From Myxococcota bacterium (GTDB lineage: Bacteria > Myxococcota > XYA12-FULL-58-9 > JALHOP01): a stretch of 64,000 bases of DNA. This document shows positions 51,441-59,026 of the stretch, piece after piece. The first letter of the stretch is position 1. Each line of letters opens with the position of its first letter. The notes under the pieces are model-generated. The model searched no databases and was not told the DNA's origin. It worked only from the letters and a program-made list of their open reading frames with translations. The DNA lies in contig JBGGMJ010000188.1 in NCBI GenBank assembly GCA_041288095.1, positions 64,001 to 128,000 on the forward strand, written 5' to 3'. Both the position numbers and the translations under genes were made by a program.

Positions 51441-51618
51441 GGGAAAGGTCTCCGGATCCGCGGCGCGTGTAGCAAACGGCATCTTGGGCTGTCAATTCAA
51501 AGAAGTGTGGGTGGTCCGGCTACCACCCAAAAAGATTTTTTCCGTCCCCGTCGTCTGCCGTGTCTAATCGGCAAACATCGCTCACGACCTTTGGGCCGTG
51601 CATCGCGAAGGAGACATT

Positions 51619-52590
51619 ATGCGTTGGTCTAAATACCTCATTCCCGCCGGCTTCCTCTTCGCGGTGGCCTGCGGCAAAGAAGAAGCCACTTTCCAGGAGG
51701 CCTTGCCCAGCAAGGACGCTCTCACCGTCAACGCGCCTGACAGCTCCAACGCGCTCGCGGTCGGTCAGCTCTCGGGCTTCTACGTCATCACGCGCTTGGC
51801 GACCGTCGGCGTGAACGTCACCGTGGCTGGCATCTTCAACCTGCTCGAGGACATCGTTCGCCAGCCGCCGACCACGATCGAGGGCGAGACCGCGATCTGG
51901 GGTCCGGGCGCGGGCGACGCGCTCGACCCGAACGTCTATCGCCTGGTCGTGACCGGCGCGAACGGCAAGTTCACCTACAGCCTGGAGTACCGCCGCAAGA
52001 ATTCGGAGGGCGACTTCATCGTGCTGGCCTCGGGCCACTCGGACAAGTCGAGCGGCGAGGCCGACGGCGTTGGTGACCTCAGCATCTTCGTGACCGCCTG
52101 GGGCGAGGCGAGCCTGAACCCCTGCGATCGCGGCACCGCGGTGATCAACTACGACACCACGACCCAGCCGCAGAAGCTCAGCATCGACTTCTCGGACTTC
52201 CGCAGCTGCGAAGAGGCCGAGGACGGTGTCTACTCGGCAAGCTACTACTACGACCGTTTCGCCGACGGCAGTGGCAACTTCCAGTTCACCGCGAACGGCG
52301 ACATCCAGGAAGGCGCCCGCGCCGTCGACGTCCTCGAGGACCTGGTCATCCGCTCGCGCTGGAACGCCACCGGCGCCGGCCGCTCGGACGCCAAGATCTC
52401 GGGCGGTGACTTGAGCCTCGAAGGTGTCACGGAAGTGACCACCAGCGAGTGCTGGGACGCGAACTTCGGCATCACCTTCGCGGTGACCACGCCGCAGGTC
52501 GTCGACCTCGACCATACCGCCGGCGCGGAGAGCGCTTGCCCGGCAGGCATGCAATCGGCCAGCTACTCGGTGGATGCCTCGATCCTCTAA
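51619..52590 (+). CDS. Hypothetical lipoprotein A (paralog of 55611-56582)
   Basis: AGGAG SD; FAVAC lipobox; WGP, ISGGDL, ECWD and ACP motifs. Confidence 0.85.
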   Translation: MRWSKYLIPAGFLFAVACGKEEATFQEALPSKDALTVNAPDSSNALAVGQLSGFYVITRLATVGVNVTVAGIFNLLEDIVRQPPTTIEGETAIWGPGAGDALDPNVYRLVVTGANGKFTYSLEYRRKNSEGDFIVLASGHSDKSSGEADGVGDLSIFVTAWGEASLNPCDRGTAVINYDTTTQPQKLSIDFSDFRSCEEAEDGVYSASYYYDRFADGSGNFQFTANGDIQEGARAVDVLEDLVIRSRWNATGAGRSDAKISGGDLSLEGVTEVTTSECWDANFGITFAVTTPQVVDLDHTAGAESACPAGMQSASYSVDASIL

Positions 52591-52608: not shown

Positions 52609-52646
52609 AAGCCCCCGCAGGTCACTCCGAGTGCCTGCGGGGGCTT
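52609..52646 (+). terminator. Strong hairpin between lipoprotein A and the ECF sigma gene
   Basis: AAGCCCCCGCAGG(T)CACT-CCG-AGTGCCTGCGGGGGCTT; only a short U tail. Confidence 0.55.
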
Positions 52647-52668: not shown

Positions 52669-53205
52669 ATGGACAACAGCGACGACCGCCCAGACCTTCG
52701 CGCTCTCTACGAGCGCTATGGTCATTCCGTCTTCCGGCGCTGTCGCTACTTCCTACGCACCGACGACGACGCGCGCGACGCCATGCACGAGGTCTTCCTC
52801 AAGGTGGTCTCCTCGTATGGCGACTTTCGCGGACAGGCTTCGCCGCTCACTTGGCTCACCCGCATTGCCACGCACCACTGCTTGAACGTCCTACGCGGTC
52901 GCAAAGCCGGCTGGCACGAGCGGTACGCGCAGGTGGTCGAAGTGGGCGCTCAGTGGAACGAACCTGGACAGGCCTCGTTCGAGCGCGCCGAGCTCGTGCG
53001 CCGGTTGCTGGCGCGCCTCGGTCGCGAGGAGCAGGAAGCCGCGATCTATTACTTCGTCGACGAGATGAACCAGGACGAGGCCGCCCGGGCCTGCGATTGC
53101 TCCCTGCCCACCCTGCGGAAACGCTTGCGGCGGTTCATCGAGGTGGCCCGCAAGGAGCTCAAGCGCGAGGACGCGACGTTGGTCTTCGGGGAAGCCCCGA
53201 TCTGA
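52669..53205 (+). CDS. ECF-type RNA polymerase sigma factor
   Basis: LYERY...DARDAMHEVFLK, FRGQASPLTWLTRIATHHCLN (sigma2); EMNQDEAA...SLPTLRKRL (sigma4). Confidence 0.92.
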   Translation: MDNSDDRPDLRALYERYGHSVFRRCRYFLRTDDDARDAMHEVFLKVVSSYGDFRGQASPLTWLTRIATHHCLNVLRGRKAGWHERYAQVVEVGAQWNEPGQASFERAELVRRLLARLGREEQEAAIYYFVDEMNQDEAARACDCSLPTLRKRLRRFIEVARKELKREDATLVFGEAPI

Positions 53206-53280
53206 CGCCGGCGCCCGTGGTGTGATGGGCGACACGTTTTTCTTTTTCTCTTTCGCAAGCCCACGGGGTCTGTTGATTCG

Positions 53281-53988
53281 ATGAGCACGCACGACGCCAT
53301 CTCTTCCTTCATGCTCGAGCGCTACGCTGTCGGCGAGCTCGACGGTGCCGACCTCGCGGCGGTCGAAGCGGCCCTCGCGGCCGACCCGGCGCTTGCGGCC
53401 CGCGTCGAGAGCATGCGTAGCGCGCGTCAGCAGTTCCTCGCCGACGAGCCCTACGCCACCTTTCGCATCGAGCATGAGCGCCGCCGGGCGCCGGTGAAGA
53501 AGCGCTTTTCCTTGTGGCTGCCCACGGGCTTTGCCGCGGCGGCGGCGACGGCGCTCTTGCTGCTGTTTATCGTGCCCGAGGTGGACAGCGAGCGCGTCAA
53601 GGGCTCGGGAGTCGGTCTCACGGTGGCCTTGGTCGGGAGCGGCGCGCCCAAAGCGTTGGCCAGCGGCGCCGTGGTGCACCCGGGGGATCGTCTACAGCTC
53701 GCCTACGATGCCGGCGACTATCGCTACCTCGCGTTGATTGGAATCGATGGCGGCGGCGTCATGAACGTCTACTATCCCGAGGGTGGCGAGGTGATGGCTC
53801 GCCGGCCCGCGGAGTCGCGCGGAGCCTTTCCTTTCAGCCTGACGCTGGATGCGACCTTGGGCACCGAGACCATGGTGGCGGTTTTCGCGGAGCAGCCGTT
53901 GCCGCTCAAGCGGATCGAAGAAGCAGTCCGCAAGAATGAGGTTTTGCCGGGGGTAAGCACGGTTCGTGTGACGCTCGACAAGGAGTAG
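53281..53988 (+). CDS. Membrane anti-sigma factor with periplasmic DUF4384-like domain
   Basis: N-terminal LERYAVGEL...VEAAL (zinc-free ASD-like), one TM helix, RVKG, VHPGDRLQL...GIDGGG...YYP...SLTLD...E..VAVF. Confidence 0.78.
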   Translation: MSTHDAISSFMLERYAVGELDGADLAAVEAALAADPALAARVESMRSARQQFLADEPYATFRIEHERRRAPVKKRFSLWLPTGFAAAAATALLLLFIVPEVDSERVKGSGVGLTVALVGSGAPKALASGAVVHPGDRLQLAYDAGDYRYLALIGIDGGGVMNVYYPEGGEVMARRPAESRGAFPFSLTLDATLGTETMVAVFAEQPLPLKRIEEAVRKNEVLPGVSTVRVTLDKE

Positions 53989-54000
53989 AAGAACGCAATC

Positions 54001-55614
54001 ATGACTGGTTGGCTGCTCAGCATCGCGCTCTTGACGAGCGCTCTGAACGTCAACGAGCCCGTCGAACGCCGGGTCGCTCTACTCGTGTCTCATCCGTTCG
54101 GCGGCGACGATCTCACGCCGCTCCGCTACACCGACAACGACGTTGCCCGCATGCGCGATGTCTTGCGCATGACCGGCGGCTTCGCCGAGCGCGACATCGT
54201 CGTGGTCTCCGCCGAGGATGCCAACAAGGTACGCGCCGCCTTCGCGGCGTTGCGCGAGCGCCTGCAAGCCGACAAGCGGCCGTCGCTCCTGCTCTTCTAC
54301 TATTCGGGACACGCGAAGGACGGCGAGCTGCGGCTCGGCAAGTCGACGCTGGCACTGACCGAGGTGAAGCGTCTGCTCGAGCAGACACAGGCGTCGTTCC
54401 GCATCGCGCTCCTCGACGCTTGCCGCGTCGGCAGCATCACCCGCTTGAAGGGCGCCACCAAGGGCGAGCCGGTGAGCATCGACATCGACGACACGACGAT
54501 GCAGAGCGGGCAGGTGCTGATCACCGCCTCGTCCGACGATGAGGACGCGCAGGAGAGCGACGAGATCCAGGGCTCGTTCTTCACGCACTACCTGACGAGC
54601 GGTCTGCGTGGCGCCGCCGATCTCGATCGCGACGGCCGCGTGACACTCTCGGAAGCCTACGGGTTCGCCTACGAGAACACCGTGTCGCGCACCGTGGCGA
54701 CGCGCGGCGGCACGCAGCACCCGACCTTCCGCTTCGACATGCGCGGCGCCGGCGACGTCACTTTGGCGCGCGCCGACGCGCCGACCTCGGGCATCAGCTT
54801 CCCCAAGGCGCTCGCGGGCGAGTTCGTCGTCTTCGACAGCAAGCGCCGCGTCGTCGTCGCCGAGTTCGACAAGGACACGAGCGAGAGCCTGCGTGTCGCG
54901 GTCGCGCCCGGCGACTACGTCGTCAAGAAGCGCGAGACCGACCACGTGCGCTTGAGCCGCCTCAAGGTGCGCGACGACAACTTCGTGACCGTCGACGTGA
55001 ACGCCATGGAGAAGGTCGCTTTCGCGGACGACTACGCCAAGGGTCAGACGATCTCCGCGCAAGAGGTCATTCACGGCAAGCTCGGCGTCTTGCTCTCGGC
55101 GCAGCTCGGCGTGCAGTCGTTCTTGTCGGCGCCGATCCGTGACGCCTACGTGCCGACCCTCGGGCTCTTCAAGCTGACGCTCGATCTCCGCAACGCCATT
55201 CGCCGCAACGTCGGCGTGCGCTTCGACGCGGGCGTCGGCTCGAGCGGCGAGCAGGGTCTCGCGGTGACCGACCCCTTGCTGGGTGACCTCGGCTACCGCG
55301 CGCGCGTCTCGCTGTTCACCGCTGGCGTCGGTCTCACCGGCGACGTGCCGTTCACGTCGTGGCTCCGCTTGAGCGGTGTCGGCCGACTCGGCTTCATCCG
55401 GGTGGCGCGCGAGTTCACCGGCGCCGAAGCCATCCCGACGCAGGCGTTCTCGACGCTCACGCCCGGGATCGAAGCGCGATTGATCGCTCGTTGCACCAAC
55501 TGGCTCGAGGCAGGCCTCGGGGCCGGCGTGCACTATGTGTTTTTCAACGGGGACGAGTCGCAGTCGCTCGCTTACGTCGACGGCGGTCTCATTCTCACGG
55601 CGGTGCTGCGATGA
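54001..55614 (+). CDS. Exported caspase-family (peptidase C14) protease with predicted C-terminal beta-barrel
   Basis: Signal peptide; YYSGH (His104) and LDAC (Cys141); AQES...GSFFTH; EF-hand-like DLDRDGRVTLSE; eight amphipathic strands. Confidence 0.88.
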   Translation: MTGWLLSIALLTSALNVNEPVERRVALLVSHPFGGDDLTPLRYTDNDVARMRDVLRMTGGFAERDIVVVSAEDANKVRAAFAALRERLQADKRPSLLLFYYSGHAKDGELRLGKSTLALTEVKRLLEQTQASFRIALLDACRVGSITRLKGATKGEPVSIDIDDTTMQSGQVLITASSDDEDAQESDEIQGSFFTHYLTSGLRGAADLDRDGRVTLSEAYGFAYENTVSRTVATRGGTQHPTFRFDMRGAGDVTLARADAPTSGISFPKALAGEFVVFDSKRRVVVAEFDKDTSESLRVAVAPGDYVVKKRETDHVRLSRLKVRDDNFVTVDVNAMEKVAFADDYAKGQTISAQEVIHGKLGVLLSAQLGVQSFLSAPIRDAYVPTLGLFKLTLDLRNAIRRNVGVRFDAGVGSSGEQGLAVTDPLLGDLGYRARVSLFTAGVGLTGDVPFTSWLRLSGVGRLGFIRVAREFTGAEAIPTQAFSTLTPGIEARLIARCTNWLEAGLGAGVHYVFFNGDESQSLAYVDGGLILTAVLR

Positions 55615-56582
55615 AGCGCATCTCGATGGCACTCGTGGCGCTCTTGGGCGCGTGTGGAGAGCTCTCGAACGACGATCTCGTCTTCCTGCGCGGTGTACCG
55701 CAGAAGGAGGAGCTCAGCCTCGATGTCGAGGAGGCTGTGGAGAACGGCCTCGTGGGCGCGCCGGCCGAGTTCTACGCCTTCCTGATCGCGGCCTCGGAGG
55801 AGACCAACAACGACGTCGCGAACCTGCTCGACTTCGTCGACAGCATCGGCAAGGGCTACCCGCCGACCACGCGCGAGCACAACCTGCGGGTCTGGGGCCC
55901 GGTGCGCAACGTCGACGGCAGCGGCACTACCGTTCGTTTCGAGGTCCGTCGTGAAGGCGACACGTTCCGCTATTGCCTCCATACGGCGCGGGACAGCGAA
56001 GTCACGGGCGAGCCGACCTGCGACGACATCCCCGGGGGCTTCGGCATGGTGGCGATTCTCTACGGCGAGTACCGCCCGCGCACCGTTGGCGGTGGCGCCC
56101 GCGAAAGCGACGGCGTCGCGACGCTCGATATGGAGAGCGCGTTCCAGCGTGGCCTCGGCTTCTCGCGCGGCAAGCTAGTCGTCACCCACGCATACGCCGA
56201 GGACGGCGACACCAAGCAGCTCACGATCACCGCGGACGCGCCGCAGATCGGCCTGCAGCCGGCGGTCCACGCCGCCTACTCGTACGACCGTGACGTCGAC
56301 GGCCGTGTGCAATTCTCGCTCGAGGCGCCCGGCGACTTCATCGAGACGACGCGCATCCCGGAGGATATGCAGATCGACGCCTGCTGGCGTGAAGGCAGCC
56401 CCGGCCGCGCCAACGTCGTCATCAGTGGTGGCGATCTGCTGGGCTTCAGCCCCGCGACCGCGGTCGAGTGCTGGGACGGCGGTATCGCTCGTACGTACGC
56501 GAGCTTCGAGCTCCCCGACTTCCCCATCTACAACTCGAACGAAGGCAACATCGCCGCCTGCCCGCCGCCGAACTGCGAGTGA
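55611..56582 (+). CDS. Hypothetical lipoprotein B (paralog of 51619-52590)
   Basis: ATGA overlap; LLGAC lipobox; WGP, ISGGDL, ECWD and ACP motifs. Confidence 0.85.
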   Translation: MKRISMALVALLGACGELSNDDLVFLRGVPQKEELSLDVEEAVENGLVGAPAEFYAFLIAASEETNNDVANLLDFVDSIGKGYPPTTREHNLRVWGPVRNVDGSGTTVRFEVRREGDTFRYCLHTARDSEVTGEPTCDDIPGGFGMVAILYGEYRPRTVGGGARESDGVATLDMESAFQRGLGFSRGKLVVTHAYAEDGDTKQLTITADAPQIGLQPAVHAAYSYDRDVDGRVQFSLEAPGDFIETTRIPEDMQIDACWREGSPGRANVVISGGDLLGFSPATAVECWDGGIARTYASFELPDFPIYNSNEGNIAACPPPNCE

Positions 56583-56620: not shown

Positions 56621-59026
56621 GTGAAAGCCCACCCGCTCATCGTGTTGATCGTCCTGACGGCCTGCGGTGGAGGCGGCAAGGACGGTCCCAAGAACAACAT
56701 CACCATCACCGCTTTGGCGGACAGTATGACGCTGCGCCAGGGCTCCCAGGCCTATCTCGGGCTCACGGTCGAGCGGCCCGCCGACTTGGGCGACATCACC
56801 ATCGTGCTCTCCGAGCCGGAAGGCATCTACGCTAACGATATCGTGCTCGTTGCCGGCGAGACCAAGGTCGTGCTCGAGCTCGCGACGAGCGTCGCGTCGG
56901 ACCTCGGCGCGTCGAGCTTGCTCATCTCCGCCACCGCGGACGGTGGTGACGGCAGCACGCGCGTGCCCGCCGACATAGCTGCGCCGTCGCCGTCGAGCGT
57001 CGACCTCATCAACCAGGCGCTCGAAGGCAGCGCCATCGACTATCCCACGTCCGTGCTCTACCGCGCCTACGCGCTCGTCGATGATCCGCGCTTGCCGGAG
57101 GCGTATCGCGGCGTCGCCGGCGAAGAGGATCTGGGTTTCTTCGTCGATGCCGCGGACCCTAGCCTGCCCGCCGAGACGCGCACGGCGCTCGCGCCTTTCC
57201 TCGTACGGCCCGCGGATCCGGCGAGCATCTGGCAAACGCTGGCGCCGACGAACCCGGGTGGCCTTACCGCCGCGGTCGTTCCCTGCAACGTTACGGACCC
57301 GGGCCAGGACGTGCAGGGCGGCTTCAAGACCGCGCGCGTCCAGGCGCCGATTCGTGTCTGGGTGCAGTGCACCGGAAACGATGCGGAAGACGACATCGTG
57401 CTCGCTTCCGGGCTCTCGTACGCGAGCGCCATGTACGGGCCCATGAGCACGCACATGGGACCGCCGGTGTTCGACGATGTCGCGGAGAACCAACCCGGCA
57501 ATCTCGATAGCGCAATCGACGTCTTCGTCGTCCACGATGGCGGCGCGTCCCTGCGCAGCGGGGTTACCCAGATCGGCAACGGTATCGCGGTGGCGACCGC
57601 GCCGTTCGCGGGCGACACCTCGAGCGGCTACATCCTCATCGGTCGCTCACGCGCCGAGAGCGCTGGTTTTCGCTCGACGATGATTCACGAGTTCTTCCAC
57701 GTGCTGCAGAAAGCGCACAATCGCAAGGTGATGTGGGAGCCGTCGGCGCTGGGCCCGAGCACCGAGTTCTGGTGGGTCGAAGCATCGGCCACCTGGGCGT
57801 CGTCGCACTTCGCGCGGAGCCTCGCGCCGGCGAACGTCTATTACCGCTTCGCGGACTTTCAACAGTCGCCGTCGTCGCTGCACCGATCGTACGCGGCCGG
57901 TAACCCGAAGATGTACGCGGCATTCATCTGGGGCTTCTGGGAGGAGCACGAGAGCGGCTCGCCGGAGACCATCGCGACCTCGTGGGTCGATCTGGAAGGC
58001 GTGAGTGGCTTCACGGCGGCGAACGAAGCGCTCGACGGCGTCTTCGATTTCGAAGCCAGGTTCCACGAGTTCGCGATAGCGAACATCAACGAGGACTACC
58101 CGCGGGCGCTCGGTCTCGACAAGCGCCACCGCGGACTCGATTCACGCTTTCCGGAGCCGCGCCCGCGTCCGAGCTACGCCGACGACCAGACCGTCAACGA
58201 GACGCGCGAATTCAGGCCCGGAGTCGACATCCCACCCTTGAAGGCCGCCTATTATCGGTACACGCCGCGCGGCGACGTGAGGAAAGTCGTCGTCCACTTC
58301 GACGAGATCACCACCCGCGAAGGGCTCGACATCGACGGCGTCATCAAGTCCGACGGTAACTGGGGTGTCGAAAGCTATAGCGGACTCGCCAAGAAGACCT
58401 TCTGCCTCGATCGCGACAAGGTCGAAGACATCATCCTCGTGCTCTCGAACCACGATCTGCCGATCACGCAGTTCGTGCTCGGCAACTTGCGCGTCGAGGT
58501 CACCGAGGCCCCGTGCAAGGCAACCTGGTCGGGCACCTTGCGCTACGAGATCTCGAGCGACGCTCCAGCCGGCAATCAGCACTCGATCGTCACCGCCAAC
58601 GTCGTGCTCGAGCAGGACGAAACTCGGGAAAGCAGCCCCTTCCTGCACTTCCTGCCGACCGGCACCTTCACGCTCACCAAGAGCGGCACCGTCGGCGGTT
58701 GCGTGCTGCAGGTGGGTGACTACCACGGCACGTTGTCGCCGGTGCCGGAGCAAGGCGAGCTGACGCTCGACCCCGCGACCGATCCCGTTCGCTACCAAGC
58801 GACCTTGCAAACGCCGATGTTCGCGCTGCATCAGCATGCGGATTGCGAGCCGCCGCAGGAGGACTACGACGTGGACACGCCGCAGATCTACTCGCTCATG
58901 CTCGTGCCGTTCGCGGACGGCAAGACGGCGTCGGAAGACGGCATCCACATCGACGGGACGAAGATGCTCGGGAGCGACTTCCATAGCGAAGTCTTCGAGT
59001 GGCACCTGACCCGCGACGTCCCCTAG
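56621..59026 (+). CDS. Lipoprotein zinc metallopeptidase (HExxH, gluzincin-like), copy 1
   Basis: LTAC lipobox; HEFFHVLQ...WWVEASATW. Confidence 0.82.
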   Translation: MKAHPLIVLIVLTACGGGGKDGPKNNITITALADSMTLRQGSQAYLGLTVERPADLGDITIVLSEPEGIYANDIVLVAGETKVVLELATSVASDLGASSLLISATADGGDGSTRVPADIAAPSPSSVDLINQALEGSAIDYPTSVLYRAYALVDDPRLPEAYRGVAGEEDLGFFVDAADPSLPAETRTALAPFLVRPADPASIWQTLAPTNPGGLTAAVVPCNVTDPGQDVQGGFKTARVQAPIRVWVQCTGNDAEDDIVLASGLSYASAMYGPMSTHMGPPVFDDVAENQPGNLDSAIDVFVVHDGGASLRSGVTQIGNGIAVATAPFAGDTSSGYILIGRSRAESAGFRSTMIHEFFHVLQKAHNRKVMWEPSALGPSTEFWWVEASATWASSHFARSLAPANVYYRFADFQQSPSSLHRSYAAGNPKMYAAFIWGFWEEHESGSPETIATSWVDLEGVSGFTAANEALDGVFDFEARFHEFAIANINEDYPRALGLDKRHRGLDSRFPEPRPRPSYADDQTVNETREFRPGVDIPPLKAAYYRYTPRGDVRKVVVHFDEITTREGLDIDGVIKSDGNWGVESYSGLAKKTFCLDRDKVEDIILVLSNHDLPITQFVLGNLRVEVTEAPCKATWSGTLRYEISSDAPAGNQHSIVTANVVLEQDETRESSPFLHFLPTGTFTLTKSGTVGGCVLQVGDYHGTLSPVPEQGELTLDPATDPVRYQATLQTPMFALHQHADCEPPQEDYDVDTPQIYSLMLVPFADGKTASEDGIHIDGTKMLGSDFHSEVFEWHLTRDVP

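Follow-up and report, generated by a model that had tools for sequence, protein, structure and literature searches.

The σE response of Escherichia coli is controlled by RseA, a single-pass anti-sigma factor that receives a periplasmic site-1 cut from DegS and is then cleaved by the M50 site-2 protease RseP; the site-1 enzyme is in this case a PDZ serine protease activated by the C-termini of outer membrane proteins. Bacterial caspase homologues are abundant and almost none of them has a defined physiological substrate, and many pairs of extracytoplasmic function (ECF) sigma factors and anti-sigma factors are likewise without a known site-1 protease. The subject here is a stretch of 64,000 nucleotides (nt) from a Myxococcota bacterium (contig JBGGMJ010000188.1, positions 64,001 to 128,000; the whole stretch is referred to as the window), in which genes for an ECF sigma factor, a predicted single-pass anti-sigma factor, and a caspase-like protease are arranged as an operon. 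The anti-sigma factor and the caspase both contain the sequence Arg-x-Lys-Gly (R-x-K-G), and the conservation of this motif in the two partners suggests that it may mark a cleavage site common to both.

Operons of this type have been in print since 2012, when 4 of 5 metacaspases of Myxococcus xanthus were reported in sigma-70/metacaspase operons, with the same neighbourhood in Anaeromyxobacter, Haliangium, Sorangium, Ralstonia, and Fibrobacter (Asplund-Samuelsson et al. 2012, PMC3501461; statements on this and the other published systems follow the available parts of the papers cited). For the anti-sigma factor DdvA, autoproteolysis followed by cleavage by RseP has been proposed (PMC11506125). 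Csx30 of type III-E CRISPR systems binds RpoE/CASP-sigma, and some Csx30 C-terminal domains belong to DUF4384 (bioRxiv 10.1101/2022.08.17.504292), while in the CalpL-CalpT-CalpS system CalpL cuts the anti-sigma-like CalpT (as cited in bioRxiv 10.1101/2023.06.23.546230). Animal caspases have a conserved processing Asp on loop L4, approximately 14 residues after β4, and such a cut in the loop is known to be needed by the effector caspases only (McLuskey and Mottram; PMC4357240). A first-pass annotation of the window, made from the sequence, had assumed that proteases of this kind often process themselves after the catalytic Cys, which is true of caspases and type II metacaspases but not of clan CD in general (PMC4357240).

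In the anti-sigma factor (53281..53988, + strand, 235 aa), the motif reads R105-V-K-G108 (CGC GTC AAG GGC, 53593..53604, + strand), which would make the K107-G108 bond a candidate site-1 scissile bond. In the caspase, which is encoded 3' of it (54001..55614, + strand, 537 aa) and is predicted to be exported, the motif is T147-R-L-K-G151 (54439..54453, + strand), with a candidate autoprocessing bond between K150 and G151, the ninth and tenth residues after the catalytic Cys. The first-pass annotation had located the two matches exactly, both in coordinates and in residues (R105-G108, 53593-53604; R148-G151, 54442-54453, CGC TTG AAG GGC), and its spacing of seven residues past the catalytic Cys agrees with the distance from Cys141, in D139-A-C141, to R148. 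It had also pointed to Y345-A-K-G348 before the barrel, which is indeed there, and to A152-T-K-G155 beside the motif, which is present but is not conserved even within the genus, where it reads ATKS, ATKA, or AVKS. The Y345-A-K-G348 sequence is part of a hinge, D344-Y-A-K347-G348 (55030..55044, + strand), at the junction between the immunoglobulin-like (Ig-like) domain and the barrel, and provides a third candidate K-G site. There is no variation at D344, K347, or G348 among 79 homologues, and the block 341-350 is modelled with a mean predicted local distance difference test (pLDDT) score of 82; the hinge reads R-G in one clade (L055/L057/L067/L070).

A sequence of the form R[VL]KG appears by chance in 0.9% of shuffled anti-sigma factors and in 2.8% of shuffled caspases, and in both at once in 0.015%. 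Tetrapeptides of the a.bc type common to the two proteins of the window number 47, as against 39.6 ± 5.2 in shuffles. The motif is judged to be real because it is conserved across relatives, and not because of the match within the window.

Of 8000 candidates scored in a search with the caspase, 2501 were relatives at E<=1e-5. In an alignment of 120 listed relatives, T-R-x-K-G follows D-[AS]-C-x-x-G almost invariably, down to 36% identity, and in a curated alignment of 79 caspases neither K150 nor G151 varies, and nor do H104, D139, and C141; T147 is conserved in 95% and R148 in 92%. Conservation in the anti-sigma factor is equally restricted to the motif. Across 39 sequences with a mean column identity of 33%, K107 and G108 are two of just four invariant columns, R105 is 90% conserved, and the neighbouring columns are at 15-59%. 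A profile search with the anti-sigma factor against 1.84 billion cluster representatives (50% identity) returned 4270 clusters at E<=1e-30, and in the best 150 of these the aligned position has K-G in 147 and R-x-K-G in 137. The top match (P0139, 758 aa), which has five matched stretches and possibly consists of tandem DUF4384-type modules, reads TAVG at the aligned position instead of R-x-K-G. Insertions are tolerated right at both motifs among homologues, and some caspases have duplicated K-G units in the loop (e.g. P0085, P0094, P0097, P0100, L106), two basic-Gly dipeptides being present after the catalytic Cys in 8 of 99. As judged from these alignments, operons for ECF sigma factors, anti-sigma factors, and exported caspases form a very large family, of which R-x-K-G, built around Lys-Gly, is a genuine short linear motif.

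The two partners were compared in 110 loci, 30 from relatives and 80 from public genomes; most of the latter belong to Myxococcota, with cultured Corallococcus and Myxococcus among them. An anti-sigma homologue is immediately 5' of the caspase in 103 of the 110 loci, including 28 of the 30 from relatives; a homologue of the sigma factor is upstream in 24 of these 30 (phmmer, with the window's sigma factor as query). Four of the seven loci without an upstream anti-sigma gene are cut by the end of the contig, and the other three (L047, L017, L050) have upstream DNA with no such gene, although L017 and L050 appear to be copies of one locus. Removal of duplicates left 102 loci, with 94 pairs in which both motif regions are present.

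Naming the Lys as P1, so that the Gly is P1' and the Arg is P3, P1 is Lys in both partners in 93 of the 94 pairs, and in the remaining pair it is Lys in the caspase and Met in the anti-sigma factor. P1' is Gly in both for 89 pairs and Gly in the caspase with Ala in the anti-sigma factor for four; the last pair (L076) has the sole caspase without the Gly, which reads K-A, and its partner anti-sigma factor reads K-S. P3 is Arg in both partners in 76 pairs, in the caspase only in 9, in the anti-sigma factor only in 5, and in neither in 4. The first-pass annotation had named a lack of conservation of the motif in homologue pairs as a result that would refute its idea; these pairs show the reverse, as the Lys is kept in 94/94 caspases and 93/94 anti-sigma factors, and the Gly in 93/94 and 89/94, respectively.

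Both motifs fall within or begin segments of predicted disorder, with residues 98-107 of the anti-sigma factor and 150-163 of the caspase having pLDDT below 50. The caspase segment (54448..54489, + strand; loop L4) is the sole segment below this value in the 537 aa model and lies between the strand 133-141, which ends in Cys141, and the core strand 169-175; in the model it corresponds to the intersubunit linker of animal caspases. Among the anti-sigma factors, the Lys is separated from the membrane segment by anything from 2 to 29 residues (roughly estimated), but from the first strand of the ectodomain by 5-6 residues in 79 of 93; the position of the motif is therefore tied to the DUF4384 domain and not to the membrane.

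The caspase itself belongs to peptidase family C14. It matches the Pfam profile Peptidase_C14 (PF00656) with 49.8 bits against a cut-off of 21.4, has the catalytic His-Cys dyad, and has the caspase fold, with Foldseek matches to the MALT1 caspase-Ig3 region, caspases 1/3/6/7/8, metacaspase 9, legumain, and OmpA (E ~1e-8 to 1e-7 for MALT1, the caspases, and metacaspase 9). The AlphaFold model, with a mean pLDDT of 90.9 and a predicted template modelling score (pTM) of 0.86, has a signal-like N-terminal helix, a C14 domain at 23-244, an Ig-like middle part at ~242-339, and an eight-stranded beta-barrel at 362-535. The dyad is formed by His104 (54310-54312) and Cys141 (54421-54423; together 54310..54423, + strand) and is invariant in 79 homologues along with Asp139 of the D-x-C sequence, an Asp that presumably lines the S1 pocket as it does in metacaspase structures. 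A specificity for Arg/Lys is predicted from the sequence.

The eight long strands at 362-535 have pLDDT mostly above 89 and match OmpA in Foldseek (9a2m, 9fzd), and on the model the C-terminal part is an eight-stranded OmpA-like outer membrane barrel that is predicted to be inserted in the membrane. The N-termini of the orthologues are clearly signal-peptide-like. Such N-termini, with the caspase domain and the OmpA-like barrel, make it likely that this is a periplasmic caspase tethered to a barrel in the outer membrane, where it would face the periplasmic ectodomain of the anti-sigma factor.

The anti-sigma factor is made up of a helical, putatively sigma-binding N-terminal part (1-69), a hydrophobic segment (~79-98), a linker (99-111), and a DUF4384 Ig-like sandwich (112-235). 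Its AlphaFold model has a mean pLDDT of 85.7, with helices at 3-69 and strands at 112-234. Profile evidence for the class is weak in the window's copy, residues 11-98 giving 26 bits to NF010501 (cut-off 225) and 24.4 bits to NF052375 (cut-off 100), and residues 132-206 giving 22.6 bits to DUF4384 (PF14326), under the cut-off of 27. However, PF14326 is annotated in the close relatives P0125, P0126, P0128, and P0130, and the copy in the same-genus genome G003 is above the cut-off. At the alignment position of the zinc motif, H..C..C is kept in many orthologues (L005, L008-L012, and L014 among them), but the copy in the window has ALAADPALAARV there; as H-x3-C-x2-C is absent from the region encoded at 53281-53487, this is a non-zinc variant within a family that is otherwise like the zinc-binding anti-sigma (ZAS) factors. 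A search with the fold of the protein gave only generic Ig-like sandwiches (RhoGDI, CARDB, the sulfite oxidase C-domain) and no lead to function.

Paralogous systems provide a further comparison. There are four anti-sigma(DUF4384-like)/caspase modules in all in the genome of the window. The extra modules are on contigs C90, C32, and C126 (loci L113, L112, and L111), and their caspases differ at the C-terminus, with a long repeat domain in C90 and hydrophobic anchors and no barrel in C32 and C126. In the clade to which the C126 module is similar (clade B; 29 loci examined, with L125 left out, and 27 neighbouring anti-sigma-like proteins), the caspase has Arg-Gly at Cys+9/+10 in 29/29, the same spacing as K150-G151. 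Past the membrane segment, 23 of the anti-sigma-like proteins of this clade have Arg and 4 have Lys, and the next residue is Gly in 18, Ser in 5, Ala in 2, and Lys in 2. A third clade (L147, L152, L173) has K-G at Cys+13/+14 of the caspase and K-G in the anti-sigma factor in all three loci. A basic residue is therefore universal in both partners, and its identity as Lys or Arg shifts in the same direction between clades. In part of clade B (L116, L117, L120, L122, L124, L126, L127, L129, L132, L142, L143) the anti-sigma-like gene is 3' of the caspase and on the opposite strand, so that the two genes are convergent; the pairing of the two genes thus survives rearrangement.

The presence of Lys or Arg in both partners across the clades, the flexible segments, and the co-conservation in pairs together fit a shared scissile bond after Lys/Arg. 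Under this explanation, which is put at about an even chance on the sequences and models at hand, the caspase would cut itself at K150-G151 in the loop that follows the catalytic Cys, where animal caspases have the corresponding intersubunit processing site, and possibly also at K347-G348 in the hinge, its tie to the outer membrane barrel. It would then cut the flexible linker of the anti-sigma factor at K107-G108, a bond that is 4-5 residues away from the start of the DUF4384 Ig-like ectodomain. Shedding of the ectodomain would leave a short periplasmic stub for an RseP-type site-2 protease, and the sigma factor would be released. The sequences and models show the genes, folds, and motif positions, with their conservation and predicted disorder, while the export topology, the preference for Arg/Lys, each of the cuts, and their order are proposed from these. 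There are four matches above cut-off to M50 (RseP-type) proteases in the window's own genome (G000). The DUF4384 domain, at its short and fixed distance from the motif, could be a docking or sensing element. That all of these hold jointly, with maturation of a zymogen at K-G, release from the barrel at K347-G348, the site-1 cut of the anti-sigma factor, and DUF4384 as an exosite that presents the bond, is a more doubtful proposition, although if it were true and the sigma factor drives its own operon, the result would be a self-amplifying proteolytic cascade across the envelope with a single cleavage code.

There are several observations that weigh against a shared scissile bond, and some of them would be accounted for if the two motifs have independent roles and resemble one another largely by coincidence, the caspase being simply a regulon product of the sigma factor. 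ECF operons do often carry their own target genes. In such a case the T-R-x-K-G of the caspase would be intrinsic to the enzyme, as a loop anchor, autoprocessing site, or turn, while the K-G of the anti-sigma factor would either cap the DUF4384 domain at its N-terminus or belong to the juxtamembrane region; the fixed spacing of 5-6 residues could equally mean that the motif caps that domain, to which, rather than to the membrane, it is tied. K-G is merely a dipeptide, and a shared tetrapeptide inside the two regions of interest is found in 10% of shuffles, so the match in a single genome is not by itself significant (P ~0.10). The R-[VL]-K-G of the first-pass annotation is reduced by the pairs to R-x-K-G, [VL] not being part of what is shared, as P2 is variable and does not co-vary (identical within the pair in 13/94, with 10.9 ± 2.9 expected). 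Co-variation of the P3 Arg is weak, with joint loss in 4 of the 94 pairs and single loss in 14, and three of the four joint losses (L055, L057, L067) have the same caspase variant, TGTKG, and may be close kin. The change between Lys and Arg that separates clades A and B amounts in essence to a single evolutionary event. In addition, the four clade B anti-sigma factors with Lys adjoin caspases with Arg, which means that there is no strict matching code and that a basic residue followed by a small residue is the better description. Caspases without an upstream anti-sigma gene keep K-G (TSIKG in L047, TRLKG in L017), and unrelated C14 proteins elsewhere (L144, L148) have a basic-Gly dipeptide soon after the Cys, so the primary role of the motif in the caspase may be one within the enzyme. 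In the window's protein only about nine residues separate K107 from the membrane, a short distance for a globular protease that would be anchored in the outer membrane. An analogy with K253-G254 of the Candida glabrata metacaspase was rejected, the alignment being insignificant (0.5 bits) and the K-G ordered, and the cleavage sites mapped in CgMCA-I are R307, K263, and R54, not K253 (available text of PMC9622860). Against independent roles, however, the motif is an invariant island within a low-confidence linker in both proteins, the Arg at -2 from the Lys is common to both partners in 76/94 pairs, and Lys has changed to Arg in both partners of clade B. Nor is the motif obviously a requirement of the DUF4384 fold. 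Matches to DUF4384 in 41 related genomes are nearly all anti-sigma-like genes adjoining caspases, and in the domains found outside anti-sigma factors four of five are without a basic-Gly before strand 1 (by eye, and in a small sample), the exception being L144 with R-G approximately six residues before it. Coincidental resemblance of this kind is considered unlikely.

The same co-conservation and disorder data could also reflect a contact that is not cleaved, with the R-x-K-G of the anti-sigma factor filling the substrate cleft of the caspase as a pseudosubstrate or mimicking its loop after the Cys. In that case the ectodomain would serve to keep the protease inactive or as a sensor of its state, and the signal would pass by binding and release rather than by shedding. 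The fixed spacing of 5-6 residues between the motif and DUF4384 suits a bipartite binding element, and the same motif in the active-site loop of the enzyme suits competition for one pocket. On the other hand, a basic-Gly dipeptide in a flexible loop is the expected target for a C14 enzyme of the Arg/Lys type, the known systems linking caspase-like proteins to sigma factors act by cleavage as far as they are described (Csx29-Csx30; PCaspase), and nothing like an inhibitor was among the generic Ig-like sandwiches matched by the ectodomain; docking without cleavage is considered rather unlikely. A single upstream protease with two substrates would leave the same pattern of conservation as well, and a trypsin-like or other envelope protease might recognise R-x-K-G in both proteins, activating the caspase zymogen and shedding the ectodomain in parallel. 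There is a precedent for activation of a bacterial caspase by another protease, from SAVED-CHAT to PCaspase (bioRxiv 10.1101/2023.06.23.546230). But no other protease is conserved with the operon, the HExxH neighbour on its 3' side being found, within flanks of 1.5-2.5 kb, in one genus only (L001, which is the window's copy, with L002 and L031), and the caspase itself has the D-x-C signature that is kept in Arg/Lys-type relatives, where the Asp presumably has the role assumed above. A third protease is considered very improbable. Cleavage of both partners by the caspase, at the bond that they have in common, is the explanation carried forward here.

The remaining genes and sequences of the operon are as follows. 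The sigma factor gene (52669..53205, + strand, 178 aa) is adjoined by the anti-sigma gene, and its product is an ECF (group 4) sigma-70 factor, as it is small and has regions 2 and 4 only. The matches to Sigma70_r2 (PF04542, 48.7 bits, cut-off 24), Sigma70_r4_2 (PF08281, 26.1 bits, cut-off 25.7), and the sigma70-ECF family TIGR02937 (67.8 bits, cut-off 42.9) are all above cut-off. Within the 75 nt between the sigma and anti-sigma genes there is a terminator-like hairpin with a T-rich run (53212-53231, + strand), which from its sequence could possibly be a partial terminator or attenuator that uncouples the sigma factor from the genes downstream. The gap between the anti-sigma stop codon and the caspase start codon is 12 nt, and the whole set of genes is tightly spaced on the same strand. 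The fourth gene (55611..56582, + strand, 323 aa) encodes a lipoprotein-like product without a match in Pfam or NCBIfam, and its ATG overlaps the stop codon of the caspase (ATGA); homologues are 3' of the caspase in most loci examined.

The fourth gene has a paralogue 5' of the operon (51598-52590; 27% identity, E 9e-21), so that two lipoprotein-like genes bracket it. Both proteins end in a conserved ...ECWD... segment, and neither matches any Pfam or NCBIfam family. Between the upstream copy and the sigma gene is a perfect GC-rich inverted repeat (52613-52645; CCCCCGCAGG ... CCTGCGGGGG), which resembles the stem of a terminator without the run of T. On the 3' side of the operon, an 801 aa protein (56621-59026) carries a putative metalloprotease domain of the MXAN_6640 type with HExxH, at 38 bits against a cut-off of 140. 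It was set aside as a conserved third-party protease, as there is a homologue in 3 of the 110 loci, although flanks of 1.5-2.5 kb may miss some.

From one conserved dipeptide it is possible to make predictions at the level of single residues, at K107-G108, K150-G151, and K347-G348, and the presence of the same operon in cultured myxobacteria makes these testable. If the explanation is correct, it would give a function to thousands of operons, the anti-sigma family having >4000 clusters at 50% identity, and to DUF4384, and it would mean that loop processing in the style of caspases, with Lys/Arg specificity, takes place in bacteria. In a search of the literature, neither this motif nor cleavage of a DUF4384 anti-sigma factor by a C14 caspase was found to be described, subscription-only papers and bioRxiv supplements being outside the search.

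Set beside the E. coli σE pathway, the locus has in common the predicted single-pass anti-sigma factor, the M50 genes in its genome, and, as proposed here, a site-1 cut on the periplasmic side, but it differs in the candidate for the site-1 enzyme, which is a cysteine protease of family C14 with its gene in the operon itself. The survey of 2012 has the same gene neighbourhood, and its available text makes no assignment of an anti-sigma factor, mechanism, or motif (PMC3501461). The likeness to animal caspases is in the conserved P1 residue on a flexible loop after the Cys strand, approximately 14 residues after β4 there and at Cys+9 here, whereas that residue is Asp there and Lys here (Arg in clade B), and processing here is predicted. 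DdvS/DdvA of M. xanthus likewise comprises an ECF sigma factor, a single-pass anti-sigma factor, and a periplasmic protease with a caspase fold (PMC6061681). However, in DdvA a TPR-CHAT protease with an incomplete active site is fused to the anti-sigma factor, while here the protease is a C14 protein encoded apart from the anti-sigma factor and has an Ig-like domain and a predicted outer membrane barrel, and no shared motif is described in the available parts of the DdvA papers (PMC6061681, PMC11506125). The window's anti-sigma factor, at 235 aa with a DUF4384-like ectodomain only and no fused CHAT, is thus not of the DdvA type.

In craspase, the caspase-like Csx29 (TPR-CHAT) cuts the linker of the sigma-binding inhibitor Csx30, which is the likeness to the arrangement proposed here; but that system is cytoplasmic and triggered by RNA, is CHAT and not C14, and has no membrane span or barrel, and its cut is not reported as Lys/Arg-Gly in the available text (bioRxiv 10.1101/2022.08.17.504292). 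The PCaspase/PCc-sigma system of Haliangium is similar in that a C14 protease from a myxobacterium becomes active on being cleaved and then cuts a protein related to sigma factors (bioRxiv 10.1101/2023.06.23.546230). As far as the available text describes them, the PCaspase and CalpL systems differ in being cytoplasmic defence systems triggered by cyclic oligoadenylate, with no transmembrane anti-sigma factor, DUF4384, or barrel. What is new in the locus compared with all of these is a separate, probably exported C14 enzyme, its predicted barrel anchor, the DUF4384 ectodomain, and a motif common to the enzyme and its presumed substrate.

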